Shown here piece after piece: positions 8,938-43,255 of a stretch of DNA of 64,000 nucleotides. Source of the stretch: Botryllus schlosseri (lineage: Eukaryota); contig CM119371.1 of the NCBI GenBank assembly GCA_051294905.1, positions 37,760,001-37,824,000 on the forward strand, in the 5' to 3' direction. Below the pieces are notes generated by a model that saw only the letters and a list, made by a program, of their open reading frames with translations, did not search any database and was not told where the DNA came from. Both the position numbers and the translations under genes were made by a program. How positions within the stretch are numbered: the stretch's first letter is position 1; each line of letters starts with the position of its first letter.

Positions 8938-8981
8938 GCTGACGATTACCCCTGACGAGTGTCAGCCGAAAATATTCGGGT
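8938..8981 (+). ncRNA. Minimal hammerhead ribozyme
   Basis: Same motif, 359 bp downstream of the previous copy. Confidence 0.85.
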
Positions 8982-10234: not shown

Positions 10235-10302
10235 CTGTACATGATATACAATTTACCGCGATGCTTTACCCGTCTGTACGATATATATCGATCGCGAGCT
10301 CG

Positions 10303-11259: not shown

Positions 11260-11620
11260 ACTTGTCGTTGGTACGCTTCCAATTTCGATGTGGTGCGATA
11301 TACGCGAATCAGCTGTGATCAATCGAGCGTGACACAATCGATGTCAGTCATCAATCCGCCTGTTTGGAAAAACTCGCGTTTTCGGGTTGACAGCAACACA
11401 ATGCGATGTATTTGATGTCACCATCGACCCTCCTATTTTAATAGGGTTACCATACGGCCTCATTTAGGGGAGGATATGTCCTCCTTTTCCAAGATATACC
11501 CTCCCTTCGACCAAATGTACCTTGTCAATTTGCTCCCTTGTTAGCTCAAAATCTCCAAAAAACACCGCGAATTACGCAAAATGCGGCCCTAGTTTACGAA
11601 AATCGGGTAGGTAGGTAGTC
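11260..11620. repeat. Diverged direct repeat within the E1 arm (second copy ~13230-13530)
   Basis: aatcagctgtgatca.tcgag.gtgac.c.atcga.gtcagtc...aaaactcg...GGGTT.CC.TACG shared by both copies. Confidence 0.65.
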
Positions 11621-20570: not shown

Positions 20571-21717
20571 ATGTACAGACACCGTCATGATTACGCTTGA
20601 CCAGACGTGAAGCAGTAAAAAGAACCCATCATAAATACATTGTTTGGCCTGGACTGTCTATGTCCTATATGAAGACGCTAGAACGCGGTAAAGGTGTGGA
20701 ACAGCAATTACACCAATTATTAAGTACGTAAAATCGGAAGTTAACACGTTGATGTGAGCTAAATTGAGAATCAGCTATTTCTTCAATTACTTATTTTTTT
20801 ACTCATAATGTTACTTTATTTAAGTTAATCTATGCTGGGGCGCCTAATACACATTTCCACTACACGGCATTCCTTGTTGTTCTCGATATGACACGCATAT
20901 TTATAACCATAACAGAACATTTCTCGTTACTGTCTGGGTCGACAACAAATTAATGGGGTCAAGTACGACAGTATGAGACAGACAACAAGCGCCACTTTGT
21001 ATAGCCGAGCCTATTGACATCTAAAACACGCACCAGGATCTCACGGATTAGGAGAAAACTATACTGACGTCACGACCGGCAATTATGACCCACCGTACAC
21101 GAAATTGAATCAACCGCGGAACGACAAGTCACCCAGGGTGGTTTGACGGACTATTGTTCCCAAGCAACGAAATTGGACCACGGAACAGCAGGGCAGGGCA
21201 GGCAACTATTATCAAGCCCCGTCGTCCGGGATCTCACATACGGACCCGAGGAAATTATTCCCAAGCCTCGTCGTGTTTACCACGTAATTGGATTAATCAA
21301 CCCACCGCGGAACGACAAGTCAAGACAGGAGAACTATACCGATTCGTCGGCGTGCATACCATTGAAATTAAAGGCCGATCCATTGTTGCTCGAGCGAAAT
21401 ATAAAAAATACTAAATACGCAAGTCTCGTGTCCAGAGGTCAGGCGAGGCAGAATCAGGAGGCGAGTGGAAAAGCACAAGTAGAAGTACTCAAGTCTCATG
21501 TCTGAGTACAAAGGTCAATCAAGATTCTTTGTTCGTTTTCTCTCTATTGGTAATTATTCCCCCTTCTTGATTGCCGCACAGTGAGAAGGGAATTCCCCTC
21601 GAGTATTGCTGCAAAATTGAGAATGAGCTAATTCTTTCACTATCTTTTATATTGATAATTCTTGTTTGTTTATTATAATCCTTGCATGCGCACCGATCGC
21701 ACATTTATATTACTACT

Positions 21718-23475: not shown

Positions 23476-25219
23476 TTTAAGTGTGAGCAGAGAGAACTTC
23501 CCTGCTTTGAATTGTATTTGGAGCAGACGTTCACGCTTTAGACTTTAGAGCATTGTTTCATGTCCGGTGTTCCACGGAACATTACTGGTTCCACGGGCCA
23601 CTTTCATGGATTATGCGGAATTTAGGAGACTCACACATATGATTTGTACGACGGTGTAGACATTGCAGGTCCTCAAACCCGATCGGTAGTGTCGTTGTGA
23701 CTGTTGCAGTGATACGTCGTGTGCTGCGGCGTACGCAGGTGGTACTGGAATTCAAAATCGAAACCCCGTCCTTCTTGAAATGACAAATATATCCCAAATA
23801 TTTATATACTCACTTCGAATTGGGCAATTGTTATCACGCTGTTGCATTTGGACCGAACCATACAATGACACTCTCCAAGGCAAAGCCGCGCATTTCTGAA
23901 CTGGTATCTGAAAGGGAATAGCAGAAGCCAGACCGATTTACAATAGATATTCACTATCATGTTCGTGTTTTGTGTGAAAATTGAAAATCAATGGGTTTGT
24001 TCTTATACCACCATGTTGATGGACTGGTCATTCAGTGCCCCCCTTCATTTGTAGTAATGAATAAGATACGGATTATCAGTAGATTTTTGTTTTTTTGACT
24101 GGGCGAACATGTGAAGTACTGCGAAAGCCTGAAGAATGGCGTATGTTGCCATTGTTGTTTGCGATAATATTGGTGTAACAGTAAGGAGCAACTGCTTTAG
24201 AGGCACCACCGGTAAAAACTTCATTGTTATCTTCATTCAGACAATAAATTATTTCATATATCCGATAATACATACAGAGTTAAAGGTCGTCAAAGTAGTC
24301 AAAAATTTCTACTCAAGTAGATGCAAGAGTGGTGATTTACAAGTAAGTAAAAGAAATAATCAAGGCCTATTTTGCCTGAAAAGCTGAAAACTGTAGTAGA
24401 AGTAGAAGAGCCGAAATAACTAACGGCAAACGCAAGAATTATTGAATTGTTTCTATAGGCCTGGATAGGGTTGTCAGACTTGCGGAATTTCCCGGACATG
24501 TCCAAAATTTCACTGTTCAAACAGCGTCCGGAAGGACATTCTAAAATTTGCCAAAATGTGGGTACGCGCACAATAAAATCAAATAATACATAGTGACACT
24601 AAAGCACGCGAAATGTGACTCAAATTTTAAATTCAATATTACCGCCCCAAAATTCTTTACTTTATGTTGATTGACGACATAACGTCATTTCACTATCGTC
24701 CGCTATCGCAATCGTAATGAGATTTTCAAATGCACAAATAACTAGGGTGCACTGTTGCAACGGAAGTGTCACTACCAGAAGCGAAGGCCGCAATCATAAC
24801 GCTGTGTGTTGAACTATGGCAAGACCAATACTTTTCTTTAGACACCGGGTCGCACTATCATCGATTCCGTCATTCAGTCGTTTCTTCGATTCCATCATGT
24901 TTCAGCTCCGAGGACTCATCCGTTCAAAATCGGTTGTGTTCACCCTTCTCCAAATCCCACCCCTTTATGAACGTTGTCATACCCGTAGCGGTGTATCATT
25001 TCATTATTGTATGTCCAGAATATCGATTTCATCGCTGATGTCCGCGCAACGAGTGTACTAGACTCAACCTTCATTTTACACTGTTTTATGTGTTATCTAA
25101 TCCCGCCACACCACCTGCTTATTTTGTTCTCTCTAGTAGTAGATTCGTATGAGTGCCTTTTTCCTGAATTTTCCTGAATTTGTTTGCGTTGTAGTCCGTG
25201 GCACATAAGACCTAAACAG

Positions 25220-25712
25220 TAGGGTGACCACATTTTGCGATCTGAACAGTAGAACGCTTTTCAAAAATTCTGAAAGCTCTTGCATCGGAAATGAAAACTG
25301 GTGATTTCGAAAAAAAAATGGTCATCGCTTTCAATCGGCTCCCGAAGTACCCGCTCTTTACGTTACAATCGTGGTGTTACCTGAAAGAAAAAAAAAAGAT
25401 AAAAAAATCATCTTTCCATCTCCACTCCCGAATTACCTGTCGCGCCGTAATTTTCGTTGATTATCGTGCCAACTTTAACGTTCGCTGCGTCGGAGTGGAG
25501 TCTTTGAGCGCATTTTAATACTTCTTCTAGTCTAGAAAAAGAGGACAAATTCCAAAAAAATAGCACAATTAGGCGTCCTCCGAGGACACTTTCAATTTAT
25601 TCGAAAAATAAAACAAATCCTCCAAGTAAAGCGTATTCGTGAAAATACGCTCAGGGCTCATGCATGAGTATGCCGGATATGAAGGGTTAAAAGAGGACGT
25701 ATAGTAACCCTA
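25220..25712. mobile_element. hAT (Blackjack-like) MITE
   Basis: TAGGGTGACCA / TAGTAACCCTA; TSD ctaaacag/ctcaacag. Confidence 0.75.
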
Positions 25713-28059
25713 CTCAACAGGTGATAAGTGGCATTGAAAACTTTTTGATATTAATTATAATGAAAATGACATCACGTTAGAAATAAGCGATGGCGGTATG
25801 ATTTCGCGTGATCTACCATTCGTGCAGAGAAAATGGTCGTTTATTTTAAATTGAAAATCTGTTTTGTGAAGGACAAATATTTATTTCCCTAACACATCGC
25901 CTTTGATACGTCGCTCACGATAGCACGCAAACCCGACAATGTATGAAGGTTAGCCCATGCCCGACTCGAATTTGCCTTCTGATCATGATTCAATGATCTT
26001 TTGGCCCTTTACGTATCGCTTGATGTAATGATGTGAAGATGTGATTTTATATTATCTTTTTTTAGTTTTCATTCAGTGAGTATGCCTCCCTGTTACATCG
26101 TCTAGGACAAGTAAGTGGGTGTCTGATTTCGAAGACTACTCAGTAGTGAGGGTTGATCAAATTGGTACGCACCAATCATGCGTGTCGAGTCCGCCCCCGA
26201 GGCTATTTACGTTCATCGTGACCGTTAGACTATAACCGTGTGTATTTAGGAGCAAATTTCGAAAAGTATGATGTCTATACAAGACTATATTCGCCAGATA
26301 TTATATTATGTGTATTTTTTCTGGATATTTAACATTAGTATGTGTATTTAGGACTTTGTATTTGGATTAGTGAGCGTTAGATGTTTTCGGCCATATAACT
26401 TTACCAAAGGCCCATTGCTTTTAGACTATCTATGTTCACGAGAACACTACAGCACCCAAGGCGAAAATAATCGAACGAACTATAGCCGCAGGCGCGCGAT
26501 TCTCAGGGCTGTAATTATACAAACACTTTATCTGCATATACGCGAACCCCAGCGTTATAACGACAGGGACTAATTAACGCGTTCTGAAGCCGTAAATTTA
26601 ATCAACTTCAATGATATGGCCATGATTTAAAGATGGTAATATCTCTTAATGACTTTATTACTCTGAATTTTAAATTATCCACACCTATTGGTTGAAATGT
26701 TGTTAAGTAACTAATGTTTTCAACATGACCTAAACGCAAAGTGCACGAATTTCCATGTTGATCAAATACCACAAACTTTGCTTGCTTTCAGAGTCAGTAA
26801 CTGAGCGCATAACAGAATTTACCCAAAATAGTCGGTACTCCGAAAATTTTGTATAGTAGAACTTTTTAAATTCATTTTACACTCGCGGTTTTATTGTTAT
26901 ATATTAAAATTAAACAATCACCTTCGCTGCAGGTACGCGATCCCTAACGTTATAATGATAGGGACAAATTAGCCGCATGAAAGCGAGTCTAATGAATATA
27001 ACGACAGACAACAAGTTAGTTGAAAAGTAAAACTAATCGTGACCGATGCATTAATGACTTCAATACTCTGTATTTTAAATTATCCACACCTTTGAGTCGA
27101 AACGTTGTTAAGTAAGTCATGTTTTCAACACAACCTAAATGCAGTGCACGAATTTCCATATCGATCAAATACCACGAATTTTGCTTGCTTTCAGAGTTAG
27201 TAACTAAGCGCGTAACATAATTTAATCGTAAGCTTTACTTGAATTTTAAGTTTCCGATTTCAAACTGAACGGTGGGATATGTATTGACCAATAAAGAGTG
27301 ACACAATATAGTAAACATGTGTGAGAAAACTCACAAGTAACCCGACATGTCAAATTTTGTTACGCATTTCATGATTGAACAACTTTAAAACCAACGCAGT
27401 TTCCCCCCGCACAATTATGAAGCCCGATTTTCTCGTTGTTATAATTAAACGAACACCATCGCCGCAGGTACGCGATCACCGACGTTATAATGATAAGGAC
27501 AAATTAGCCGCATGAAAGCGAGTCTAATGAATATAACGACAGACAACAAGTTAGTTGAAAAGTAAAACTAATCGTGACCGATGCAAGACGACGTGAAACA
27601 GCGCTTTCGCTCGATTCTTGTAGTGACCACATTTCATACGATTCAGTCCTTTTCATGTCACTAGAATAAGGATGATTAAACCGACAGTGAAACGCCGCCG
27701 GCGTCTTATAACGTAATAATGTAAGCTGCGTCGGGTGCTGCTATAATGTTCGGAGCGAATATAGTAGAAATATAACCAGTAGCTTACTTTGAAATCTCTA
27801 CTTGTAGTTGTATTGGAGCAGAATTGTGACCGATACATTAATGATTTTAATACTCTGTATTTTAAATTACCCACACCTATGAGTCGAGATGTTCTTAAGT
27901 AACTCATGTTTTCAATATCACCTAAACGCAAAGCTCCAAAATTTCCATGTTGATCAAATACCACAAACTTTGCTTGCTTTCAGACTTAGTAACAAAGCGC
28001 ATAACAGATTTCACCTAAATAAGTCGGTACTACGAAAATTTTGTAAATTAGAGCTTTTT

Positions 28060-28107
28060 GGTGATGGACTTAAGTTCCAATGAACAAGTGTTCACGTAGG
28101 TTCGAAT
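28060..28107 (+). pseudogene. tRNA-Leu(UAA) fragment (anticodon arm to T loop); mirror 38777-38824 (-)
   Basis: TGGA-CTTAAGT-TCCAA, variable arm GAACA-AG-TGTTC, GGTTCGAAT. Confidence 0.7.
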
Positions 28108-28353
28108 GGAGCAGAATTGTGACCGATGCATTAATGATTTTAATACGTACGTATTTTAAATTACCCACACCTATGAGTCGAAATTTTCTTAAGTAACTCA
28201 TGTTTCCAATATCACCTAAACGCAAAGTTCCAATATTTCCATGTTGATCAAATACCACAAATTTTGCTTGCTTTCAGACTTGGTAACAAAGCGCATAACA
28301 GAATTCACCTAAAAAAGTCGGTACTCCGAAAATTTTGTAAATTAGAGCTTTTT

Positions 28354-28414
28354 GGTGATGGACTTAAGTTCCAATGAACAAGTGTTCACGTAGGTTCGAA
28401 TCCCACACCCAGTA
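28354..28414 (+). pseudogene. tRNA-Leu(UAA) 3' two-thirds; mirror 38470-38530 (-)
   Basis: Anticodon arm with TAA, long variable arm, GTAGGTTCGAATCCCAC, 3' acceptor-like strand; D arm and 5' strand absent. Confidence 0.8.
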
Positions 28415-29076
28415 CGTTTTACGAGAATTAACATTTTTAGATTCAAATAGAGCATATTGAGTACTTTTTCAGCGCATTAGAGACGTTTACACTATGGAGT
28501 TCGTAAGCTTTGCTTGAGTTTTTTAAATTAAGGTAGAAGTAGCCATTTCCGAGTAAGTAAAACGTTAGTATTTTAGGTCCATTTCTGCTTAATGCAATAA
28601 TTATCGCGGTGTTGAAGCAGTCCAATATCATAAACACTTGAAAGAATTTGTTGCATGCAGCTAAAAACCTAATTGAGTACTCGGAAGAAGTACAAGTAGC
28701 ACAGTTTGTGGTGTTTGTATGACATCAAAATTTACGTACTTTTCGCTTACCTTATGTTAATAGTGTTCCTCGTCTATCTACTTTATAAGATTCAGTGTAG
28801 AAATTCAGTAGAAATGTAAACACGCTTGAATATGACTAAAACTCGCATAAGCATTACACTATGATTGATTATTTCAATTAGCAAGCATAATAGATCATCA
28901 CCTAATGAATGCAAGGACGAGTTCGCAAGTGGAAAATAAGTCAGATCGCTCGAAATAATAGTCCCGAGTTGCGTAAAGCTAAAATTTTGCTGGCTTTCAG
29001 AGTTAGTAACTAAGCGCGTAACAGAATTTTCCTAAAAAAGTCAGTACTCCAGAAATTTTGTAAAGTATAGCTTTTT

Positions 29077-29137
29077 GGCGTTGGACTTAAGTTCCAATGA
29101 ACAAGTGTTCACATAGGTTCGAATCCCACACCCACTA
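29077..29137 (+). pseudogene. tRNA-Leu(UAA) 3' two-thirds; mirror 37747-37807 (-)
   Basis: GGCGTTGGACTTAAGTTCCAATGAACAAGTGTTCACATAGGTTCGAATCCCACACCCACTA closely follows the metazoan tRNA-Leu(TAA) pattern. Confidence 0.8.
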
Positions 29138-30459
29138 CGTTTACGAGAATTAATATTTTTAGATTCAAATTTAGCGTATTGAGTACCTTTTCTGCCTTTT
29201 TCAGCGCATTAGAGACGTTTACACTATGGATTTCGTGAGCTTTACTTGAGTTTTATAAATTAACGTAAAAGTAGTCATTTCCGAGTAAGTAAAACGTTCG
29301 TATTGTAGGTTCATTTCTGCTTAATACTATAATTATCGTGGAGTTGGAGCAGTCCAATATCAAAAACACCCGAAAGTATTTGTTGCATATAGCTAAAAAC
29401 CTAATTGAGTACTCTGAAGAAGTGCAAGTAGCACAGTTTGTGGTATTTCTATGACATCGAAATTTAGCTAACCAGAACTTATACTTGAGTACTCCGAAAT
29501 GTACAAGTACTTTACCTTTACACGACGTTTCTGTAAAATGAATACTGATTTTATTAAAAAATAAAAAAGCACGAAAAATTACATTTTATCCCAAACCATC
29601 AGAATACTAAAGTAGCTTATTGCGTATATGGACCTAATACTAAAGTGTGTGACACAGGAGTGATTCATTAAGTATAGCGCAAGCAGGCCAAACCTATAAT
29701 TGAGTGCTCCAAAATGTACAAGTACTTCGCTATGTACTCCCTCCACGTAAAAAGTGACAGATTTAGACAAAAGTTGCTATAGAACTGCGTTAGTTTTAAA
29801 GTTGTTCCATCATGCAATGTGTGATGAAATTTGGTATGCTGCATAATCACAATGCCCTGGAGCTCATTTAGATACGTTTTTTTTAATGTAGTTACACATT
29901 CTAGTTGTTTTGATGTAAGGAAAAAATCATTCGATAACTCGATAGTTAACACGCGTTGATGTAACTTTCCTCATTTGTATGCATAGCCTACGCGAAATTA
30001 TTATTAGCATCTTCGAAACTTTTGGTCTAGTTCATCCGCTTGCATTTCGAAACAGACCATCACGACAAGACTCTAACCCACCACATCCGAGGTTTCAGTT
30101 GATCATATCGAAGAATATCATGTCCATTCGTGTTACCACCCGCAGATTGCGCCACTGCCTCATCAATAATTGTTACGTCATCATCATCACTAGCTTCCGG
30201 CTCTTTACGATACATAACGTGCTGTTCACCGTATCGATAGCACCAACGAATATTCGTGAAAGGGTTGTAATCTCGGTGAAATAGTGTACGACACATTTTT
30301 CCACAATTCGAATGCATGTCGGTTCATACTAAGACCATGTTACGGTCAAATATGTGTGTTTTTCTGTCTCCAAGTCAGCTACCCCCACATTGAATGTACA
30401 GAGTCGGTGTCAAATTTCTACAGCTACGTAAGGGAATTTTTAGGGTTACCCAGAATGAC

Positions 30460-31640
30460 GATTTTTTCAATATATTTGAGAAATGACATAACGCACCTTT
30501 AGGGCTGTGCAATCTGTTCCATCATTATACGCTTGTAAGTCGCCCCGAGCATTCGTGTGTCAACGAGTATGCAGTAATCATTTTCTTCGCTACCTGAAAT
30601 GGAACGATTTAGCTTCAAACTCAACGCATTAGCATAGCGAATCTAAGTATAGACGATAAATAATATACAGTATAGCTCTACCTAATTAATTCATAATATT
30701 GTAACCACAGCGAGATTCGAGTAATGAGCGGGGCTAGATAGTCTACCCTAAACAGAGAACTTGCATATACATTCGAATTTATGCGACTTCGGCTATATTG
30801 CCGGTTAACATTATAGCCGCGCACAGGACTGATTATTACGTTATAGCTATTTAAATGGTACGATATAGGAGAAATCTCGGTACGCTGGCGATTTTTTCAT
30901 AATAGTTGAGAAATGATATAACGCACCTTTAGGGCTGTGCAATTTGCTCCATCATCATACGCTTGTAACTCGCCCCGGGCTTGAATGTGTCCGCGAATAT
31001 ATGCCGTGATCATTTTCTTCGCTACATGAAATGAGACGATGTAGCTTCAAACTCAACGCATTAGCATGCTAAATTTAAAAAAAATAGGTCGTAAATAATA
31101 TAGCGAAGCTCTACTTAATTAAATCTTAATATTGTAATAGCACAAATTATGACGTAGCGTGATCTAGGTATTACTATAGATGTAATATATGATTATTCAG
31201 CATTCGAAATGATAAAGCTTCAGCCATGAAGCTCTGGTGATTTTTTCAATATAATTGAGAAATGATATAACGCACCCTTAGGACTGTGCCATCTGCTCCA
31301 TCATTATACGCTTGTAAGTCGTCCTGGGCTTGCGTGTGTCAACGAGTAGGCAGTAATCATTTTCTTCGCTACCTGAAATGGAGCGATTTAGCTTCAAACT
31401 CAACGCATTAGCATACCGAATTTAAATATAGACGATAAGTAATATACAGTATAGCTCCACTCAATTAATTCACAATATTGTAACCACCGCGAGATTCGAG
31501 TAATAAGCGAGGCTAGAGAGTCTACCCTTAACGGAGAACTTGCATATACATTCGAATTTATGCGACTTCGGCAATATTGCCGGTTAATATTATATCTGCG
31601 CACAGAACTAATTATTACGTTATTAGCTATTGGAGAAATC
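30460..31640. repeat. Three diverged tandem units (~350-430 bp) in the E2 arm (mirror ~35244-36424)
   Basis: ttgagaaatga.ataacgcacc.ttagg.ctgtgc at ~30476, ~30906, ~31255. Confidence 0.8.
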
Positions 31641-32199
31641 TCAACGTAATTCAATCTGCGTGCACAATCCACGTAAGCTAATACCGCATCGAGAAATTAT
31701 AGCTAAATTTAGTTTAAATCGATACAAAAATACATGGATCCTACCTTACCTGTGATGCCTGCCTCGTTCGCTGTGCACATGACAATACTTGGAACAGAAA
31801 TGTGAAGTTTTCAGAATGCGAATTACTTTACGTCGGAAGTAAACATTCTAATTCGTATCGCCAACGCAACTTTATTCATAATGTTCTAATTCGCATTATC
31901 GATGTGGCCCGACTTCTTGGAATCGTAATCAACTATATTCGTGGCACATTTACACGCGTCAATTTCTTGGAATAGTATTCGGCAACATGCGCGGCCCCAG
32001 CAATAATCGCGCAGACCCTAATGTTTTTGAGCTGCATAGCAATGAAATCTTTTGACTGCAAGCGCGAGTTCACAACTGACAAATATGTTAGATCGCACGA
32101 AATAATAGTCCCGAGTTGCGTAAAGTTAATGTTCTCCGCGTAGCTGAGATCGAGGTTTTTCAAGATTTCATCATCACACATCTAATGATGGAACACCTT

Positions 32200-32760
32200 T
32201 GAAACTATCGCAGTCGAATACCGACTTTTACGCATATCTGCTTTTCGTGAACACAGCATATACCCATACATAGTCAATTTTAATAACAGAATTAGTGTGC
32301 GAAACATCAAATTCTCACCTTGAACGTTGGTACGCAGTTGTAGGACATAATAAGAATGAACCATACCAAATTTCGTCACACATTTCATGATGTAACACCT
32401 TTAAAACCAACGCAGTTCTATACAGACTTTTGGCTAAGTCTGTTTTCCGTAGCGTAGCACGTACCTATGCATAGTCAACTTTAATAACGGAATTACCATG
32501 TTAATAATCGACTCCCGACCTTGAAACTCGCTACACCGTTGTAATACATTATGACAATGCACCATGTCAAATTTTGTTACGCATTTCATGATTGAACAAC
32601 TTTAAAACTAATCCAGTTCCATGCCGACTTTTGCGGGGGCGTAGCACGTACCTATGCATACTCAACTTTAATAACGGAATTACCGGGCTTAACATTGAAT
32701 GCGCAACTTGAAGATCGGTTCACAGGTGTAGGACATTATGACAATGGAACATACCACTGC
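32200..32760. repeat. About three diverged ~185-200-bp units in the E2 arm (mirror ~34124-34684)
   Basis: cata.tcaa.tttaataac.gaatta at ~32269, ~32470, ~32657. Confidence 0.7.
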
Positions 32761-33421
32761 GCTAACTTTCAGAATTGTTAAGTATAGTACTCGCACTTTG
32801 TGAGAATACCCAAGTAGGGTTTTTGCCTACATGCACCAAATACTCTCAAGTCCTTATGATATTGGAGTACATCAACTTCATGATAGCTAGAGTATTGAAC
32901 AGAAATGGACCTAGAGTACTAACGTTTTACTTACTCGGAAATGACTACTTCTACCTTATTTTAAAGGATACCTCGTTCGAAGCGAAATTTATGTGGTTTT
33001 GGATAATATCCAAGATATAGGCTCACTTTGAAGGGTACTTCCTAAAACTCAAATATTGCGCAAAAAGTACAATTAGGGATCTAAAAGTAACTAATATAGA
33101 TGGTTATTTCCGTAGATGACTTACCCTCTACTCAAGAGGTTTTTCAGGTGGAACTACCTACTTTTAGGACTGTGTATGTCAAAGTAGTTTGAGCTTACGT
33201 TTATATCACCTTGACAAGTGACATTATCAGACATGAAAATGATATTATCACGTAATACCAGAAGTTAACACACGTCAATGTGTTTCGGAATTCACGAGAA
33301 ATTGCTTACTAAGAGAAGTATATTCTTGTGTACACAATAGCGGAGAGAATATTTAAAATGTAGTAAGCAGGCCGATGGGTATTCATTGAGTTGTATAAGC
33401 ATAAAAAACATTCCTGCGTGC

Positions 33422-33462
33422 GCGTCTCAGGATTAGGTGGTAGGGTTAGGCAGGGTTTAGGA
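33422..33462 (+). other. Unpaired apex loop of E2 with degenerate telomere-like (TTAGG/TAGGG) repeats
   Basis: gcgtctcaggattaggtggtagggttaggcagggtttagga between arms closing on cattcctgcgtgc/gcgcgcgggaatg. Confidence 0.85.
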
Positions 33463-36400
33463 GCGCGCGGGAATGTTTTTTATGCTTATACAACTCAATG
33501 AATACCCATCGGCCTGCTTACTACATTTTAAATATTCTCTCCGCTATTGTGTACACAAGAATATACTTCTCTTAGTAGGCAATTTCTCGTGAATTCCGAA
33601 ACACATTGACGTGTGTTAACTTCTGGTATTACGTGATAATATCATTTTCATGTCTGATAATGTCACTTGTCAAGGTGATATAAACGTAAGCTCAAACTAC
33701 TTTGACATACACAGTCCTAAAAGTAGGTAGTTCCACCTGAAAAACCTCTTGAGTAGAGGGTAAGTCATCTACGGAAATAACCATCTATATTAGTTACTTT
33801 TAGATCCCTAATTGTACTTTTTGCGCAATATTTGAGTTTTAGGAAGTACCCTTCAAAGTGAGCCTACATCTTGGATATTATCCAAAACCACATAAATTTC
33901 GCTTCGAACGAGGTATCCTTTAAAATAAGGTAGAAGTAGTCATTTCCGAGTAAGTAAAACGTTAGTACTCTAGGTCCATTTCTGTTCAATACTCTAGCTA
34001 TCATGAAGTTGATGTACTCCAATATCATAAGGACTTGAGAGTATTTGGTGCATGTAGGCAAAAACCCTACTTGGGTATTCTCACAAAGTGCGAGTACTAT
34101 ACTTAACAATTCTGAAAGTTAGCGCAGTGGTATGTTCCATTGTCATAATGTCCTACACCTGTGAACCGATCTTCAAGTTGCGCATTCAATGTTAAGCTCG
34201 GTAATTCCGTTATTAAAGTTGAGTATGCATAGGTACGTGCTACGCCCCCGCAAAAGTCGGCATGGAACTGGATTAGTTTTAAAGTTGTTCAATCATGAAA
34301 TGCGTAACAAAATTTGACATGGTGCATTGTCATAATGTATTACAACGGTGTAGCGAGTTTCAAGGTTGGGAGTCGATTATTAACATGGTAATTCCGTTAT
34401 TAAAGTTGACTATGCATAGGTACGTGCTACGCTACGGAAAACAGACTTAGCCAAAAGTCTGTATAGAACTGCGTTGGTTTTAAAGGTGTTACATCATGAA
34501 ATGTGTGACGAAATTTGGTATGGTTCATTCTTATTATGTCCTACAACTGCGTACCAACGTTCAAGGTGAGAATTTGATGTTTCGCACACTAATTCTGTTA
34601 TTAAAATTGACTATGTATGGGTATATGCTGTGTTCACGAAAAGCAGATATGCGTAAAAGTCGGTATTCGACTGCGATAGTTTCAAAGGTGTTCCATCATT
34701 AGATGTGTGATGATGAAATCTTGAAAAACCTCGATCTCAGCTACGCGGAGAACATTAACTTTACGCAACTCGGGACTATTATTTCGTGCGATCTAACATA
34801 TTTGTCAGTTGTGAACTCGCGCTTGCAGTCAAAAGATTTCATTGCTATGCAGCTCAAAAACATTAGGGTCTGCGCGATTATTGCTGGGGCCGCGCATGTT
34901 GCCGAATACTATTCCAAGAAATTGACGCGTGTAAATGTGCCACGAATATAGTTGATTACGATTCCAAGAAGTCGGGCCACATCGATAATGCGAATTAGAA
35001 CATTATAAATAAAGTTGCGTTGGCGATACGAATTAGAATGTTTACTTCCGACGTAAAGTAATTCGCATTCTGAAAACTTCACATTTCTGTTCCAAGTATT
35101 GTCATGTGCACAGCGAACGAGGCAGGCATCACAGGTAAGGTAGGATCCATGTATTTTTGTATCGATTTAAACTAAATTTAGCTATAATTTCTCGATGCGG
35201 TATTAGCTTACGTGGATTGTGCACGCAGATTGAATTACGTTGAGATTTCTCCAATAGCTAATAACGTAATAATTAGTTCTGTGCGCAGATATAATATTAA
35301 CCGGCAATATTGCCGAAGTCGCATAAATTCGAATGTATATGCAAGTTCTCCGTTAAGGGTAGACTCTCTAGCCTCGCTTATTACTCGAATCTCGCGGTGG
35401 TTACAATATTGTGAATTAATTGAGTGGAGCTATACTGTATATTACTTATCGTCTATATTTAAATTCGGTATGCTAATGCGTTGAGTTTGAAGCTAAATCG
35501 CTCCATTTCAGGTAGCGAAGAAAATGATTACTGCCTACTCGTTGACACACGCAAGCCCAGGACGACTTACAAGCGTATAATGATGGAGCAGATGGCACAG
35601 TCCTAAGGGTGCGTTATATCATTTCTCAATTATATTGAAAAAATCACCAGAGCTTCATGGCTGAAGCTTTATCATTTCGAATGCTGAATAATCATATATT
35701 ACATCTATAGTAATACCTAGATCACGCTACGTCATAATTTGTGCTATTACAATATTAAGATTTAATTAAGTAGAGCTTCGCTATATTATTTACGACCTAT
35801 TTTTTTTAAATTTAGCATGCTAATGCGTTGAGTTTGAAGCTACATCGTCTCATTTCATGTAGCGAAGAAAATGATCACGGCATATATTCGCGGACACATT
35901 CAAGCCCGGGGCGAGTTACAAGCGTATGATGATGGAGCAAATTGCACAGCCCTAAAGGTGCGTTATATCATTTCTCAACTATTATGAAAAAATCGCCAGC
36001 GTACCGAGATTTCTCCTATATCGTACCATTTAAATAGCTATAACGTAATAATCAGTCCTGTGCGCGGCTATAATGTTAACCGGCAATATAGCCGAAGTCG
36101 CATAAATTCGAATGTATATGCAAGTTCTCTGTTTAGGGTAGACTATCTAGCCCCGCTCATTACTCGAATCTCGCTGTGGTTACAATATTATGAATTAATT
36201 AGGTAGAGCTATACTGTATATTATTTATCGTCTATACTTAGATTCGCTATGCTAATGCGTTGAGTTTGAAGCTAAATCGTTCCATTTCAGGTAGCGAAGA
36301 AAATGATTACTGCATACTCGTTGACACACGAATGCTCGGGGCGACTTACAAGCGTATAATGATGGAACAGATTGCACAGCCCTAAAGGTGCGTTATGTCA

Positions 36401-39400
36401 TTTCTCAAATATATTGAAAAAATCGTCATTCTGGGTAACCCTAAAAATTCCCTTACGTAGCTGTAGAAATTTGACACCGACTCTGTACATTCAATGTGGG
36501 GGTAGCTGACTTGGAGACAGAAAAACACACATATTTGACCGTAACATGGTCTTAGTATGAACCGACATGCATTCGAATTGTGGAAAAATGTGTCGCACAC
36601 TATTTCACCGAGATTACAACCCTTTCACGAATATTCGTTGGTGCTATCGATACGGTGAACAGCACGTTATGTATAGTAAAGAGCCGGAAGCTAGTGATGA
36701 TGATGACGTAACAATTATTGATGAGGCAGTGGCGCAATCTGCGGGTGGTAACACGAATGGACATGATATTCTTCGATATGATCAACTGAAACCTCGGATG
36801 TGGTGGGTTAGAGTCTTGTCGTGATGGTCTGTTTCGAAATGCAAGCGGATGAACTAGACCAAAAGTTTCGAAGATGCTAATAATAATTTCGCGTAGGCTA
36901 TGCATACAAATGAGGAAAGTTACATCAACGCGTGTTAACTATCGAGTTATCGAATGATTTTTTCCTTACATCAAAACAACTAGAATGTGTAACTACATTA
37001 AAAAAAACGTATCTAAATGAGCTCCAGGGCATTGTGATTATGCAGCATACCAAATTTCATCACACATTGCATGATGGAACAACTTTAAAACTAACGCAGT
37101 TCTATAGCAACTTTTGTCTAAATCTGTCACTTTTTACGTGGAGGGAGTACATAGCGAAGTACTTGTACATTTTGGAGCACTCAATTATAGGTTTGGCCTG
37201 CTTGCGCTATACTTAATGAATCACTCCTGTGTCACACACTTTAGTATTAGGTCCATATACGCAATAAGCTACTTTAGTATTCTGATGGTTTGGGATAAAA
37301 TGTAATTTTTCGTGCTTTTTTATTTTTTAATAAAATCAGTATTCATTTTACAGAAACGTCGTGTAAAGGTAAAGTACTTGTACATTTCGGAGTACTCAAG
37401 TATAAGTTCTGGTTAGCTAAATTTCGATGTCATAGAAATACCACAAACTGTGCTACTTGCACTTCTTCAGAGTACTCAATTAGGTTTTTAGCTATATGCA
37501 ACAAATACTTTCGGGTGTTTTTGATATTGGACTGCTCCAACTCCATGATAATTATAGTATTAAGCAGAAATGAACCTACAATACGAACGTTTTACTTACT
37601 CGGAAATGACTACTTTTACGTTAATTTATAAAACTCAAGTAAAGCTCACGAAATCCATAGTGTAAACGTCTCTAATGCGCTGAAAAAGGCAGAAAAGGTA
37701 CTCAATACGCTAAATTTGAATCTAAAAATATTAATTCTCGTAAACGTAGTGGGTGTGGGATTCGAACCTATGTGAACACTTGTTCATTGGAACTTAAGTC
37801 CAACGCCAAAAAGCTATACTTTACAAAATTTCTGGAGTACTGACTTTTTTAGGAAAATTCTGTTACGCGCTTAGTTACTAACTCTGAAAGCCAGCAAAAT
37901 TTTAGCTTTACGCAACTCGGGACTATTATTTCGAGCGATCTGACTTATTTTCCACTTGCGAACTCGTCCTTGCATTCATTAGGTGATGATCTATTATGCT
38001 TGCTAATTGAAATAATCAATCATAGTGTAATGCTTATGCGAGTTTTAGTCATATTCAAGCGTGTTTACATTTCTACTGAATTTCTACACTGAATCTTATA
38101 AAGTAGATAGACGAGGAACACTATTAACATAAGGTAAGCGAAAAGTACGTAAATTTTGATGTCATACAAACACCACAAACTGTGCTACTTGTACTTCTTC
38201 CGAGTACTCAATTAGGTTTTTAGCTGCATGCAACAAATTCTTTCAAGTGTTTATGATATTGGACTGCTTCAACACCACGATAATTATTGCATTAAGCAGA
38301 AATGGACCTAAAATACTAACGTTTTACTTACTCGGAAATGGCTACTTCTACCTTAATTTAAAAAACTCAAGCAAAGCTTACGAACTCCATAGTGTAAACG
38401 TCTCTAATGCGCTGAAAAAGTACTCAATATGCTCTATTTGAATCTAAAAATGTTAATTCTCGTAAAACGTACTGGGTGTGGGATTCGAACCTACGTGAAC
38501 ACTTGTTCATTGGAACTTAAGTCCATCACCAAAAAGCTCTAATTTACAAAATTTTCGGAGTACCGACTTTTTTAGGTGAATTCTGTTATGCGCTTTGTTA
38601 CCAAGTCTGAAAGCAAGCAAAATTTGTGGTATTTGATCAACATGGAAATATTGGAACTTTGCGTTTAGGTGATATTGGAAACATGAGTTACTTAAGAAAA
38701 TTTCGACTCATAGGTGTGGGTAATTTAAAATACGTACGTATTAAAATCATTAATGCATCGGTCACAATTCTGCTCCATTCGAACCTACGTGAACACTTGT
38801 TCATTGGAACTTAAGTCCATCACCAAAAAGCTCTAATTTACAAAATTTTCGTAGTACCGACTTATTTAGGTGAAATCTGTTATGCGCTTTGTTACTAAGT
38901 CTGAAAGCAAGCAAAGTTTGTGGTATTTGATCAACATGGAAATTTTGGAGCTTTGCGTTTAGGTGATATTGAAAACATGAGTTACTTAAGAACATCTCGA
39001 CTCATAGGTGTGGGTAATTTAAAATACAGAGTATTAAAATCATTAATGTATCGGTCACAATTCTGCTCCAATACAACTACAAGTAGAGATTTCAAAGTAA
39101 GCTACTGGTTATATTTCTACTATATTCGCTCCGAACATTATAGCAGCACCCGACGCAGCTTACATTATTACGTTATAAGACGCCGGCGGCGTTTCACTGT
39201 CGGTTTAATCATCCTTATTCTAGTGACATGAAAAGGACTGAATCGTATGAAATGTGGTCACTACAAGAATCGAGCGAAAGCGCTGTTTCACGTCGTCTTG
39301 CATCGGTCACGATTAGTTTTACTTTTCAACTAACTTGTTGTCTGTCGTTATATTCATTAGACTCGCTTTCATGCGGCTAATTTGTCCTTATCATTTTAAC

Positions 39401-40800
39401 GTCGGTGATCGCGTACCTGCGGCGATGGTGTTCGTTTAATTATAACAACGAGAAAATCGGGCTTCATAATTGTGCGGGGGGAAACTGCGTTGGTTTTAAA
39501 GTTGTTCAATCATGAAATGCGTAACAAAATTTGACATGTCGGGTTACTTGTGAGTTTTCTCACACATGTTTACTATATTGTGTCACTCTTTATTGGTCAA
39601 TACATATCCCACCGTTCAGTTTGAAATCGGAAACTTAAAATTCAAGTAAAGCTTACGATTAAATTATGTTACGCGCTTAGTTACTAACTCTGAAAGCAAG
39701 CAAAATTCGTGGTATTTGATCGATATGGAAATTCGTGCACTGCATTTAGGTTGTGTTGAAAACATGACTTACTTAACAACGTTTCGACTCATAGGTGTGG
39801 ATAATTTAAAATACAGAGTATTGAAGTCATTAATGCATCGGTCACGATTAGTTTTACTTTTCAACTAACTTGTTGTCTGTCGTTATATTCATTAGACTCG
39901 CTTTCATGCGGCTAATTTGTCCCTATCATTATAACGTTAGGGATCGCGTACCTGCAGCGAAGGTGATTGTTTAATTTTAATATATAACAATAAAACCGCG
40001 AGTGTAAAATGAATTTAAAAAGTTCTACTATACAAAATTTTCGGAGTACCGACTATTTTGGGTAAATTCTGTTATGCGCTCAGTTACTGACTCTGAAAGC
40101 AAGCAAAGTTTGTGGTATTTGATCAACATGGAAATTCGTGCACTTTGCGTTTAGGTCATGTTGAAAACATTAGTTACTTAACAACATTTCAACCAATAGG
40201 TGTGGATAATTTAAAATTCAGAGTAATAAAGTCATTAAGAGATATTACCATCTTTAAATCATGGCCATATCATTGAAGTTGATTAAATTTACGGCTTCAG
40301 AACGCGTTAATTAGTCCCTGTCGTTATAACGCTGGGGTTCGCGTATATGCAGATAAAGTGTTTGTATAATTACAGCCCTGAGAATCGCGCGCCTGCGGCT
40401 ATAGTTCGTTCGATTATTTTCGCCTTGGGTGCTGTAGTGTTCTCGTGAACATAGATAGTCTGAAAGCAATGGGCCTTTGGTAAAGTTATATGGCCGAAAA
40501 CATCTAACGCTCACTAATCCAAATACAAAGTCCTAAATACACATACTAATATTAAATATCCAGAAAAAATACACATAATATAATATTTGGCGAATATAGT
40601 CTTGTATAGACATCATACTTTTCGAAATTTGCTCCTAAATACACACGGTTATAGTCTAACGGTCACGATGAACGTAAATAGCCTCGGGGGCGGACTCGAC
40701 ACGCATGATTGGTGCGTACCAATTTGATCAACCCTCACTACTCTACTCCAAGTCGTTTCGACTCCTTCCTGTCCTTTCATTGTATCGCAGGTGCATTGAA

Positions 40801-41189
40801 ATTATTAGTATTATTATTAATGGCACATTTACAGTGGCGCTTATCGCATTTTCATGCACCACGACACGAATATTTGTAATGATCATAATTCTTTGCCTTC
40901 CGTGTTCTTGAGGACGGGTTTCACTCTTTCTCTCACTCAGACGTCAGCCTCTCTCGCTCTCATGCGTGCCCATCGTGGTCTTTGCTGCCGACTTGTAGCA
41001 CGGCTCATTTTCTGTCTGGACTTTTCAATGCACTGCAACTGCAGTGATGTCGGCGATGAGGAGCCCAGAGAAGGCGATGAGGAGCCCAGAGAAACCTCCG
41101 ACACATAGAAGGTGGTCAGAACCGGGATTTGAACCCTCTTCCATTGGTGTCGTGGCTCAGTGCGTAACCAACTGCGCCACTCGCTTCCC
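40801..41189 (-). mobile_element. tRNA-derived SINE, family 2
   Basis: A box TGGCGCAGTTGG, B box GGTTCAAATCC, (TAA)n tail, TSD-like gtg(c/g)attgaaat. Confidence 0.8.
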
Positions 41190-42402
41190 AAGTGGATTGA
41201 AATGATGGAATTGTTGAAATTTAAATTGAATTGACATAGTTTGGGTTCCAGTTTTCTGCTAAAAACCGAACCCGGTCACTAGACCTCACAAGTATGGAGT
41301 ATTCCCAAATATGAAATAGTTTTTATCACGTATTGATGATCTTTGAATGTAATCCGACGCCGGGTGTTCTGTCCAGATGTAGGTTCCACTTCACCACCAT
41401 GTGGTCATGTCTATAAGATATTGCCGAGTTCTTTGTCATTACTAGCGAGTGGCACTGGAAATGACAACGGGATCTATACTTGGAATTACCTGCCCTATCG
41501 GGAGTAGAAGTTGAGCAGACCTAAATATTTGGAATGGTCTCGAGAAGAAGTGGTAAGTAAAGAAGTGATTTTCTACTCTTTCGAAGTAGCACTGCTTTTT
41601 TCGGTGGCTATTATTGTAGACAACCTTCAATTCTTGTTAACAGTTACCAACTGTTTTGGAAAAAAAGATTTCTTTTACCAACTTGAAAGCGTTGCATCTA
41701 TCTGTTCTTAAGTAGAAATTTACCACGTTACTTCATCCTCTACCTGAGTACCAGCGATGACTGTTTTGTCCGTCTCTAGTCTCAAAGCGCAAGAATATTT
41801 GTACCGGACCGATTTAACCTCCTTTTCAGGAAATCGAAAATCTTCTCCAAGCACGCCTGAATGTTCCCCTTTTGGGATATTAGCCCCCTTGGAAATCCGT
41901 GACAGCTAGGCTAATGGACAGAGTCAACTGAAAATTGCCTTACATTACGCAGTAATGTGGACGTTCGAATGGGTCATTCGAGAGTCGAGTCGAAGTGATG
42001 ACCATTTTTTAGTCAACACCAGGGTTACCAAGCGCCAACGTTGAAACAACAACTATAAGGCTGCAGTTTGTTTATTTGTCAGATTATTCCTTGCTTTAGA
42101 CGTTGTGACTATTTCGTACCATATTCAATGTTCACCACAGGTCACAATAGTCACACGGACGATATGAATACTATAGATGGCCTCCCACTGCCTATCATAC
42201 CGAGGGCGAAAGTGATGGCCTATTTTAAATTGTCAGTTTTTTTAAATTTCGTTAGGGGTCACACTAGGACCAAAATAGATATGTCGTCCGCACTAACAGA
42301 ACATAATAACCCCTACCTTATACCAACTTTATAAATTTTCGAAATAGCTCCGTCACCATCTGTTGAAAACCACTGCTCTTACCGCTTTCCTGAAATTTTC
42401 AG

Positions 42403-42685
42403 AACCCTGATTAGCGCGATTGAGGCTACAGGCTTGAGTTTCTGGATCGGGGTGGTCACCTCGACGGACGACGAGGGGATATCCGCACCTGTGTTTATCG
42501 ATCCGCTGGCTGGAACCCCTGCAGTAGGCCAGCTCACCAACTTCGGTACGTCCCCGGCCGATGGCTTCACCCTTACTGTGGGTCAAAGTATCTGCGCGCG
42601 CCTGGATGAAATTGGTCAGGATACCCTGATATTCGAAGCGTGCGATTCCGCGAGTCACCGCTACCTGTGCGAATCTTGCGGTTAA
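42403..42685 (+). CDS. Terminal exon of a C-type lectin-domain gene (paralog of gene A exon 6)
   Basis: ttttcag acceptor, same phase as gene A; TLISAIEATGLSFWIG...ICARLD...LIFEACDSASHRYLCESCG*; frame open; upstream exons not found. Confidence 0.7.
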
Positions 42686-42866
42686 AATCCGACACTGTCA
42701 CGAATTGGATATGATCAGAGATGGTCATTAACAACTTAATTATATTTGTAGTCCTTAGCCATGACGAGTTTCCGCCGAAAACATTCGATTTTAAAAAAAA
42801 TATGAATATGTTATCCAATTGTATGTTAAAGTTTGGCTTGCCTATCTGTACGTATACATATATCAC

Positions 42867-43255
42867 TAGAGCCCGACCGATATTGGATTTTGGGCCGATA
42901 CCGATAACACCGATATATTCAGCTGATATTCAAATAAAGGTGAATCTACCTCAAAAGGCGCATTTTCAAAACTTCGGAGCATTTATTTCAACAACTTTAC
43001 AGCATTGTCATACTTGAACATGAAATAGACTATAAAGGATGTATCTGGGCACTTTGAAAGTGTAAGCTGTACGAAATATAGCAATATTCCCAGTCTAGCG
43101 GTCAAGAGTTATAGTTCACCGACTTCCTACCATCATGTTGTGACCCCACGAAAATAGCCAATATTTTATCAGCTCCAATGGCCGATACCGATAATTCATT
43201 GAAAGTGTAATATCGACTCGATATTATCGGCGAACCGATAATTGGTCGGGCTCTA
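42867..43255. mobile_element. hAT MITE
   Basis: TIR TAGAGCCCGACC; internal CCGATA repeats; perfect TSD tatatcac. Confidence 0.9.

Follow-up and report, generated by a model that had tools for sequence, protein, structure and literature searches.

Maverick/Polinton elements were reportedly recognized by Kapitonov and Jurka in 2006 and by Pritham et al. in 2007 as virus-like transposons with (AGT)2 ends. To our knowledge, their replication has never been directly observed, and the protein-primed, virus-like cycle attributed to them is deduced from their genes. According to the available text of PMC8097293 (Barreat and Katzourakis, 2021), the hallmark of these elements is a pair of 5′-AGTAGT...ACTACT-3′ ends flanked by a 6-bp target duplication, and intact vertebrate copies have terminal inverted repeats (TIRs) of 46–1,447 bp. 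The available text of PMC5499653 defines Polintons as encoding, without exception, a protein-primed polymerase together with a retrovirus-like integrase. In the literature searched, with most subscription journals and Repbase outside the search, we found no description of a Maverick that is palindromic over its whole length. Here we report on an element with Maverick ends, E2, which is a palindrome from one end to the other and lies in a 64,000-nt window of Botryllus schlosseri DNA, the whole stretch that was analyzed.

Geometry and ends of the E2 palindrome

E2 is a real DNA palindrome of 14.6 kb. A repeat search of the window paired positions 26142-33421 (left arm, + strand) with 33463-40742 (right arm, - strand, the reverse complement of the left), giving 7,280 nt per arm, 41 nt between them and a total of 14,601 bp. 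Ungapped base-by-base comparison of the arms revealed 16 mismatches in 7,280 nt (0.22%), comprising 13 transitions and three transversions, and zero indels. Pairing halts exactly at the outer ends, and positions 1–15 outside are unpaired. The first-pass annotation had described a hairpin with about 41 unpaired bases and only scattered substitutions without net indel, essentially one 7.3-kb end sequence present twice. The arm comparison bears out this description, and the mirror sum of 66884 that it proposed holds at every base pair of the arms. An inverted repeat of 7.3 kb with 99.8% identity cannot have originated by chance. The arm has 0 blastn matches elsewhere in the window at E ≤ 1e-5.

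The left end of E2 is AGTAGT, i.e., (AGT)2 (26142-26147, + strand), the Maverick end motif as given in the available text of PMC8097293, and the right end is ACTACT (40737-40742, + strand). The target duplication was said to be intact, and it is: a perfect 6-bp CTACTC occurs at 26136-26141 and identically at 40743-40748. The TIRs are extreme, at 7,280 nt each. We examined 14 elements, E2 and 13 others that were picked by similarity to E2's own ends, and the end motif is present in all 14. The 6-bp duplication is perfect in 11 of these, has one mismatch in two and is absent from one.

The left arm is non-coding, with a longest stop-to-stop frame of 112 aa, and contains several repeats (all + strand). 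A dispersed family of 251-nt direct repeats (family D2, 26665-29124) has four copies, starting at 26665, 27857, 28151 and 28874, and within it TRF detected a 294-nt tandem of two units (27814-28401). Two 271-nt direct repeats (family D7, 28464-29466) are 90% alike at a spacing of 732 nt, and two 385-nt direct repeats (30460-31623), 91% alike at a spacing of 779 nt, are kin to a 515-bp tandem array in a coding copy, C8x, that is described below. Staggered blastn matches suggest degenerate repeats of about 200 bp at arm positions 6030-6615 (32171-32756), where TRF was silent.

E2 encodes neither the polymerase nor the integrase of the Polinton definition, as it has no ORF longer than the 112 aa of its longest arm frame. 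The 30 ORFs of C8x gave zero tblastn matches in E2, and an Rfam search of 5000-42000 returned no family. Because it lacks coding capacity, E2 is a non-autonomous derivative and not an autonomous member of the group. Together with the ends, the duplication and the TIRs, this establishes on sequence grounds what E2 very probably is: a Maverick-derived, palindromic, non-autonomous element.

Fold-back chimeras are a familiar long-read error, and we asked whether mis-joining or a chimeric read of this type could have produced the palindrome during assembly. Gaps of 100 Ns and doubled apexes do occur at two related loci, C5 and C7b. The public runs consist of short Logan contigs, and among those listed none spans an arm and none bridges the apex. 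One contig, from run X1 (probably the source sample), matches 25572-26168 without difference and reaches 27 nt into E2, under the 31-nt bridging rule. Another, from run X7 (organism C, depth 2), ends exactly at 26141 plus three letters, which fits either an empty site or the end of the contig. An artefact is nevertheless hardly credible, as the transposon motif is present at each outer end, next to matching 6-bp duplications in unique flanks, the arms differ by substitutions with a 13:3 transition bias and by no indel, and the same palindrome and loop occur at other loci with other duplications.

Elsewhere in the window, E1, the element next to E2, belongs to the same type and shares no nucleotide similarity with it except for the end motif. 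Pfam searches of the window ORFs at 2308-2832, 17097-17558 and 53015-53482 found nothing, and a GIY-YIG domain considered for the first of these was dropped, having no Pfam support.

Coding and palindromic relatives in the same genome

The same genome contains a coding relative with the same ends. This copy, C8x, is 16,790 bp in length and has a 243-bp TIR, E2's end type and a 6-bp duplication. It encodes an rve integrase with a chromodomain (E = 2e-14) and a Pox_A32 ATPase (E = 8e-9), along with Bcl-2 and BIR. A 425-aa ORF provides a weak lead to a double-jelly-roll capsid protein, based on a PF21738 match that is under the cut-off (E = 0.013) and on Atlas neighbours. The integrase has 119 matches in the genome, 113 of which are free of internal stops. 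We found no ORF for a protein-primed polymerase in C8x, and a PF03175 search of the organism's own genome gave 0 matches from nine candidates, at an uncertain sensitivity since the control fired in 0 of 14 genomes. We identified neither a resolvase-like gene nor a nickase gene in C8x, which also lacks the hairpin module found at the center of E2. Among the loci listed, contigs C1 and C2 have no hairpin inside coding elements. On C6, 9 kb separate an intact integrase (114716) from a one-sided match to the apex (124802), and this locus may represent a coding parent or else a pair of adjoining elements.

Gene-less Maverick palindromes number in the hundreds in this genome and share a small hairpin at their center. 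On C13 and C12, copies that are palindromic along their entire length have the same apex as E2 and match it at 99.1–99.4% identity over arm positions 314–7321. One of the two has its own 6-bp duplication, and the C13 copy has none (GGCAAG versus GGTAGG). The six whole palindromes measure 14.6–15.4 kb, and among 28 end-motif pairs the median length is 15,358 bp, with 22 of them at 13.5–18.1 kb. E2 has 87% of the length of the coding copy (14,601 versus 16,790 bp). The hairpin lies 7.26–7.70 kb from an end in eight of the nine elements that have the module on both strands.

The end motif, the perfect duplication and the sister palindromes on two other chromosomes uphold the earlier claim that E2 integrated as a unit. 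The palindrome could otherwise have formed in place, either from two head-to-head insertions or by a break and fold-back repair of an inserted element. Fold-back inversions at short inverted repeats near breaks are well documented in yeast, in the available text of PMC7467729. However, a single duplication flanks the entire element, whereas two head-to-head insertions would each have a duplication of their own and would not share a loop, and repair by fold-back would not supply a second proper end whose duplication matches the first. With the identical architecture also present in sister copies on other chromosomes, we give formation in place almost no weight.

The Maverick Bcl-2 gene is present on each arm of two further sister palindromes, C3x and C5x. 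This bears on the idea that E2 serves the host as a source of hairpin RNA, in which read-through transcription would yield long dsRNA and small RNAs, and these would silence those Mavericks with which it has modules in common. There is a parallel in Mu killer of maize, where inverted transposon duplicates silence their family. The support here is structural: the arms have end sequences and repeat modules in common with coding copies, including the repeat family shared between the E2 arm and the C8x tandem array. Against this, E2 itself has no coding sequence in common with C8x. Such a role is compatible with the other readings, and we regard it as improbable.

Symmetry and the apex hairpin

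The center of E2 is a hairpin. Its left stem (33363-33421, + strand) is 59 nt in length and terminates in CCTGCGTGC, and its right stem occupies 33463-33521 (- strand); the predicted DNA fold has an energy of -79.8 kcal/mol (z -21). Between the stems is the unpaired 41-nt loop (33422-33462, + strand), with the sequence GCGTCTCAGGATTAGGTGGTAGGGTTAGGCAGGGTTTAGGA, which is G-rich on the + strand and includes TAGGGTTAGG, a 10-nt stretch of the telomere repeat that the host uses (TTAGGG). The stem-top pattern occurs at 245 loci, compared with 0 for the control, and the apex is common to at least 40 loci at 93–99% identity. We scored 40 apex loci, and at 35 of them the symmetry extends for at least 233 nt to either side. 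At three others, the boundary of the stem is, on one side, also the boundary of symmetry, which stops exactly 59–61 nt from the loop and gives way to differing sequence. The apex is thus a discrete conserved module with three parts: a stem of 59 bp, a GC clamp and a telomere-like loop of about 41 nt.

The loci with short hairpins were considered as gene-bearing progenitors, and this was rejected for L040 and L041, which resemble palindromes in which one arm was shortened at the stem boundary. A third, L039, continues into unrelated DNA.

We aligned the six arms of E2, C12 and C13. Within a copy the arms differ by 16–23 substitutions, versus 34–58 between copies (the within-copy counts include half of the asymmetric loop, and the clean count for E2 is 16, not 25). 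The arms cluster by copy. Fixation on both arms, in either one or two of the copies, is seen for 46 substitutions, and another 30 are confined to a single arm. The ends of the three copies also differ: each has a distinct first ~32 nt and a distinct block of 313–606 nt, and each block is mirrored within its copy, with three mismatches in 313 nt in E2 and none in 606 nt in C12 and C13. The terminal block of E2 (arm positions 1–313; 26142-26454, + strand) is a mosaic by comparison with other copies. Its first ~38 nt match C1x and C12x, its positions 21–310 match C5 at 98.6%, and it is missing from the C12 and C13 copies, which are otherwise 99% identical.

Given that the arms group by copy and that differing end blocks are mirrored within each, we infer that the symmetry of the palindrome was probably renewed through copying and not merely inherited. 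The symmetric substitutions in the interior could have arisen via chromosomal arm-to-arm gene conversion. Conversion could not readily copy a block that reaches the very tip, however, since the flanks of the element share no homology. Renewal by copying also affects how the age of E2 is read. The first-pass annotation called the integration recent, which stands in relative terms, as the arms are 0.22% apart compared with ~0.5–0.8% to the sister copies. It does not stand as a date for the family, whose age cannot be told from an arm identity that copying renews.

A simpler history would have a single palindrome originate once and be inherited, moving whole by cut-and-paste or copy-and-paste, with its arms kept alike by intrachromosomal conversion as in other large genomic palindromes and the hairpin being just the old center. 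The 93–99% identity of the apex across at least 40 loci is consistent with a single origin, and inheritance with conversion would likewise group the arms by copy. At one locus, L042, 171 bp are missing beside the loop, the kind of central deletion that is typical of chromosomal palindromes. On the other hand, the end blocks differ among three 99%-identical copies yet are mirrored to the last base, and conversion requires homology past the tract, of which the flanks have none. Moreover, C3x keeps the stem and loop type of the hairpin despite otherwise unrelated arms, which indicates reuse of a module and not one old center. On balance, we consider inheritance with conversion unlikely.

The best explanation of the whole, to which we assign a probability of roughly 60%, is that a Maverick-derived snap-back genome, formed by turnaround at the hairpin, was inserted as a unit. 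Under this explanation the hairpin module would be the turnaround point. A polymerase copying a linear extrachromosomal element from one end would fold back or switch strand at the hairpin, and would then recopy its own product to the start, giving a snap-back molecule made of an arm, a loop and an inverted arm. Each round of turnaround would renew the mirror symmetry, transmit any new end block to both arms and convert one end into two valid ends. E2 was inserted as one unit, and both of its ends are the same Maverick (AGT)2 end. The rve integrase supplied in trans by coding copies elsewhere would presumably join these ends to the chromosome, leaving the 6-bp duplication. The family would thereby consist of near-genome-length, snap-back defective genomes integrated in trans. 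Taken by itself, the step at which extrachromosomal replication turns around at the hairpin has, in our view, a little less than an even chance of being correct.

The apex also resembles a replicated hairpin telomere, with its perfect stem around a short asymmetric loop. The natural form might then be a linear duplex of ~7.3 kb with a covalently closed apex and an open Maverick end, maintained by rolling-hairpin or telomere-resolution replication, and E2 would be its integrated, unfolded dimer-junction form. Consistent with this, no protein-primed polymerase was found in the local coding family (though the PF03175 control was silent too), and hairpin priming is proposed, in the available text of 10.64898/2026.07.28.741278, for virophage and polinton-like elements that have terminal palindromes and no such polymerase. 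A closed-ended duplex is quite improbable, however, as C8x has no identified gene of the resolvase or nickase kind, every integrated copy seen is in the unfolded form, and it is the total length, not half of it, that matches the coding element.

This match in length bears on the snap-back explanation as well. The proximity of 14.6–15.4 kb to the 16.8 kb of the coding copy weakly suggests a limit, such as capsid packaging, as in defective interfering genomes. The similar lengths could instead come from shared ancestry, and we regard a packaging-limited defective genome as doubtful.

Even more speculatively, the central hairpin may act in cis as a "turnaround telomere." Gene-less Maverick satellites would replicate through it as snap-back mini-genomes that repeats bring up to capsid length, parasitize coding Mavericks in the manner of defective interfering genomes and enter the germline in hundreds of copies, while the tip may borrow host telomere proteins against hairpin-opening nucleases or damage signalling. 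The single-stranded loop displays TAGGGTTAG, which corresponds to the minimal site for POT1, a telomere protein. We see this extended scheme as a long shot.

Significance and comparison with known systems

The palindrome family may be a natural record of a replication intermediate. If the turnaround is true, it implies a linear extrachromosomal stage and a strand turnaround at a defined hairpin, and if the length limit is real, packaging is implied. The hairpin module, species of 7.3 and 14.6 kb and the loop sequence provide probes for the extrachromosomal stage. We know of no earlier defective-interfering-like or satellite lineage of a Maverick, and the family would be the first. Palindromes of 15 kb are also likely to be fragile sites and possible sources of dsRNA, with a bearing on the stability of the host genome and on transposon silencing.

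Several known systems resemble E2 in part. The rDNA palindrome of Tetrahymena is nucleated by a short inverted repeat. Palindromes of this type, in Tetrahymena and in yeast (available text of PMC7467729), have a short repeat and a non-palindromic spacer at their exact center, comparable to the 59-bp stem and 41-nt spacer of E2. The E2 family likewise has a discrete central repeat with an asymmetric spacer, which is also found without a large palindrome. However, palindromes of that type arise at breaks in host chromosomes, whereas that of E2 has the ends of a transposon and is mobile as a unit.

Foldback transposons such as Drosophila FB and Galileo share with E2 very long inverted arms, a scant center and repeats in the arms. 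The arms of FB consist of short repeats in tandem arrays, and foldback target duplications are 9 or 7 bp. In E2, by contrast, the ends are those of Mavericks, the duplication measures 6 bp and the arms are mostly non-tandem. E2 does not fit the FB type in the size of the duplication or in the TRF result of one 294-nt × 2 array in 7.3 kb.

The terminal palindromes of endogenous virophages and polinton-like viruses (available text of 10.64898/2026.07.28.741278), like E2, combine a hairpin palindrome in the Polinton supergroup with the lack of a protein-primed polymerase and a proposed hairpin replication. Those palindromes are 52 nt in length and form the tips of coding protist viruses, whereas in E2 the hairpin sits at the center and the palindrome takes in the whole of a gene-less element. 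With Maverick/Polinton elements themselves, E2 shares the AGTAGT...ACTACT ends, the 6-bp duplication, TIRs and a total length inside the range of 12.7–24.6 kb. It differs from them in that they have genes and short TIRs, while E2 is gene-less, has a TIR that is the whole element and contains a conserved central hairpin module.

Defective adenovirus molecules were reportedly found to be inverted duplications (Daniell, 1976). As in the snap-back defective genomes of linear DNA viruses, E2 has one end duplicated in inverted orientation, has kept its cis-acting ends, has lost its genes and is near unit length. The viral genomes are extrachromosomal or encapsidated and were observed in the laboratory, whereas the E2 family is integrated in the germline in hundreds of copies and has a dedicated apex module.

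Architecture and identity of E2

A repeat search of window positions 24000-43000 recovered a single dominant inverted pair in the palindromic element E2, 26142-33421 against 33463-40742. The first-pass annotation had described E2 (26142-40742) as a 14.6-kb hairpin with about 41 unpaired bases, mirrored at a coordinate sum of 66884, with scattered substitutions and no net indel. Geometry and symmetry were both borne out: the arms are 7,280 nt apiece around a 41-nt spacer, and the arm-to-arm divergence count that it proposed, run ungapped and base by base, gave 16 mismatches in 7,280 positions (0.22%; 13 transitions and 3 transversions) and no indels. Pairing ends abruptly at either outer end. 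The target-site duplication, rightly read as intact, is the 6-bp CTACTC, identical outside both ends, and the arm has no second match anywhere in the window outside E2. Thirteen arm differences could be polarised by sister copies; the derived state lies on the left arm in 11 and on the right in two, an excess that could reflect chance (about 2%), conversion bias or a polishing effect. The single duplication and the proper ends contradict both an assembly artefact and formation in place, as do the sister copies and the fact that the arms differ by substitutions only.

The ends of E2, 5'-AGTAGTG...CACTACT-3', carry a signature described for Mavericks by Barreat and Katzourakis (2021; PMC8097293), where intact elements are given as 12.7-24.6 kb (mean 16.9 kb) with terminal inverted repeats (TIRs) of 46-1,447 bp. 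E2 is a derivative of the Maverick/Polinton, an already known kind of element. It has no coding capacity: the longest stop-to-stop frame is 112 aa, tblastn with the 30 ORFs of 80 aa or more in the coding copy C8x gave no match to E2, and an Rfam search of E2 returned no family. A role as a source of hairpin RNA is possible and compatible with the other readings discussed below.

The neighbouring element E1 (window 6635-21717; 15,083 bp) is likewise non-coding and of Maverick type: its ends are AGTAGT...ACTACT, and the 6-bp GATGCC is duplicated on either side. A unique centre of 2,169 bp separates arms of about 5.7 kb in total, made up of 873 nt (2 mismatches) and 4,821 nt (13 mismatches), and the element has no nucleotide similarity to E2. 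The E1 end has 54 genomic matches, many as +/- pairs at 8-22 kb spacing. A 1,538-bp block (window 7508-9045) occurs in the left arm only, between copies of a 12-bp direct repeat, AAATGTGTATTA; this block, in turn a palindrome built from 359-bp repeats (729-nt arms, 45-nt loop), is probably a later insertion or expansion. Elsewhere, window 53504-60034 holds nested inverted repeats of 557 nt at 87% (55986-56542 / 58704-59260) and 202 nt at 85% (53504-53705 / 59833-60034), probably part of another, older transposon.

Palindromic relatives and the apex hairpin

Across the 495.5-Mb assembly (219 contigs), in which the window occupies C1:37,760,001-37,824,000, a 17-nt end pattern occurred 73 times, against 7 for a reversed control, mostly in +/- pairs. 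Median length over the 28 pairs is 15,358 bp, and 22 of them span 13.5-18.1 kb. We fetched 12 more elements, six via paired E2-end matches and six from the 28 pairs, a set skewed toward E2 relatives that reaches 14 with E2 and E1. All 14 have the AGTAGT...ACTACT motif. The 6-bp duplication is perfect in 11, has one mismatch in two (C9 and C12x) and is absent from C13, whose flanks differ (GGCAAG vs GGTAGG), possibly through rearrangement or inter-copy recombination. Beside the C13 palindrome lies a 631-aa ORF that has a MULE transposase domain (E 8e-8).

C12 (15,187 bp) and C13 (C13:24,817,999-24,833,204, loci L009/L010; 15,206 bp) are whole-length palindromes; between arm position 314, counted from the outer end, and the loop, their identity to E2 is 99.1-99.4%. 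C1x, C3x and C15x are palindromes too: C1x (15,214 bp) and C3x (15,422 bp) each have 99.7% arm-to-arm identity, C15x (15,415 bp) is symmetric over 98.7% of its length, and C5x has an inner palindrome of 11.2 kb. C5 and C7b, with symmetry of about 90%, were not used as palindrome evidence because both have 100-N gaps and doubled apexes.

The centre of E2 is a 59-bp stem (33363-33421 / 33463-33521) around the loop at 33422-33462. A 301-nt query spanning this apex gave 40 scored loci from 756 first-look candidates. Symmetry extends at least 233 nt on both sides in 35; in three the second arm is cut to 60-61 nt, one (L042, C3:37,181,601-37,185,000) has a 171-bp deletion beside the loop, and one has no listed partner. 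The three truncated loci share a symmetry boundary 59-61 nt from the loop, beyond which their sequences differ. At L040 and L041, one arm is shortened to the 59-61-nt stem and joined to an array of roughly 200-bp repeats at the same repeat phase; these two loci and L042 look like products of palindrome-centre instability.

The stem ends in ...AAAAAACATTCCCGCGCGC, and the loop is 41-48 nt long and rich in TTAGG-like units. The stem-top pattern with a 35-60-nt gap was found at 245 genomic loci, against none for a control. Loops of all subfamilies consist of degenerate telomere-like units around the core TAGGGTTAGG, which equals 10 nt of the host telomere repeat TTAGGG; (TTAGGG)4 occurs 11,717 times in the genome, some of them in a long terminal array of contig C1 (CM119371.1), and (TTAGG)5 occurs 45 times. 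As single-stranded DNA the module is predicted to fold at -79.8 kcal/mol (z -21), as expected for a palindrome.

These sequences show the apex hairpin to be a modular unit. C3x has the same stem and loop type as E2 at its centre; apart from these, only short modules are common to the arms of C3x and E2. Nine elements have the module on both strands, and in eight of them its distance from an end is 7.26-7.70 kb, even with arms that are different mosaics. Among the examined elements it is absent from C8x, C5, C9 and E1, and C7a has the stem motif on one strand only.

Probable renewal of symmetry

For E2, C12 and C13, all six arms were aligned, starting at arm position 330 and moving inward. In this alignment 46 substitutions are fixed on both arms of a copy, in one copy or in two (patterns 000011, 001100 and 001111), and 30 are private to a single arm. 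Arms differ by 34-58 substitutions between copies and by 16-23 within a copy, the latter counts taking in half the asymmetric loop (clean E2 value, 16). There is no grouping of left arms against right arms in this alignment.

The end blocks are the stronger evidence. The first ~32 nt exist in three versions, and the 313-nt end block of E2 is replaced in C12 and C13 by one of about 606 nt. Within each copy the block on one arm mirrors that on the other, differing at 3 of 313 nt in E2 and at none of 606 nt in C12 and C13. The E2 end is itself a mosaic, with matches to C1x and C12x over the first ~38 nt, to C5 over positions 21-310 (98.6%) and to C12 and C13 over the remainder.

Symmetry in the E2 family thus appears to have been renewed, beyond mere inheritance. 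Inheritance of the palindrome, with its arms kept alike by chromosomal gene conversion, explains the pattern in part: it accounts for the internal symmetric changes but leaves the mirrored end blocks without account. Since the ends differ between copies yet are mirrored in each, a swap at one end must pass to the other, to the last base; chromosomal conversion is a poor fit there because it requires a tract with homology at either side, which the flanks do not provide. If one arm were copied from its partner in a free, linear molecule, mirrored ends would follow naturally.

A coding relative and a possible route to palindromes

The one coding element of the 14, C8x (C8:25,651,428-25,668,217, loci L037 and L038; 16,790 bp, TIR 243 bp) has ORFs for an rve and chromodomain integrase (E 2e-14), a Pox_A32 packaging ATPase (E 8e-9), a Bcl-2 family protein (181 aa, E 8e-21) and a BIR/IAP protein (211 aa, E 3e-18), the last two being accessory genes of anti-apoptosis type. 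A 425-aa ORF gave only a weak double-jelly-roll signal (PF21738, E 0.013, under cut-off); among its Atlas neighbours, 24-30% of members have PF21738. C8x has no polymerase-sized ORF, and its left 5 kb, a stretch in which one might expect a polymerase gene, is a tandem array of 515-bp repeats that are related to E2 arm positions 4553-5852. A genome search with PF03175 found no protein-primed polymerase, a result of little weight because its control was silent too.

The C8x integrase has 119 genomic matches, in identity groups of about 96-100%, 67-70% and 53-55%. As 113 of them lack an internal stop, integrase-coding Maverick copies are abundant and their integrase genes mostly intact. At C6:114,716-125,095 a one-sided E2-apex match is found 9 kb away from an intact integrase gene with 96% identity to the C8x gene; the two may mark either one gene-bearing element that includes the hairpin module or two adjoining elements.

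The Bcl-2 ORF is full-length in C3x, C5x and C9 (76-78% amino acid identity to C8x), is reduced to its first 80 residues in C5 and C7b, and has no remnant in E2, C12, C13 or C1x: a gene-loss gradient across sister palindromes. Part of the C3x arm runs collinear with the accessory-gene end of C8x, as duplication of one end would predict.

We infer that the cycle includes a linear extrachromosomal stage, in which synthesis starting at one end would reverse course at the hairpin, through fold-back or a switch of strand. Copying back would then yield an arm, a loop and an inverted arm, so that both ends are functional and identical, and the abundant Maverick integrase would join the product to the chromosome in trans. 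A hairpin-ended 7.3-kb replicon resolved at the apex is compatible with these data; it fits the apex anatomy and what a recent preprint proposes for polymerase-less polinton-like elements (10.64898/2026.07.28.741278), but a resolvase was not seen, and the coding copy is matched by the total length, not half of it. The (AGT)2 end is similar to the reiterated ends used for jumping back by protein-primed polymerases. The adenovirus CATCAT end is of this kind.

The six whole palindromes span 14.6-15.4 kb, near the 16.8 kb of the coding copy, and the arms are padded with dispersed and tandem repeats. This narrow range and the padding recall defective genomes held near packaging length. In adenovirus, some incomplete-particle DNAs were reportedly found by Daniell in 1976 to be inverted duplications. 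Incomplete particles of adenovirus are described as containing DNA from the left genome end (PMC5033970).

What appears to be new is the occurrence of whole-element palindromic, gene-less, genome-length Maverick derivatives with a conserved hairpin module. A full-text literature search, with subscription journals and Repbase outside its scope, found none described; the nearest case reported there is that of butterfly polintons, whose gene-bearing TIRs are ~2 kb long (preprint 10.1101/2025.02.07.637071).
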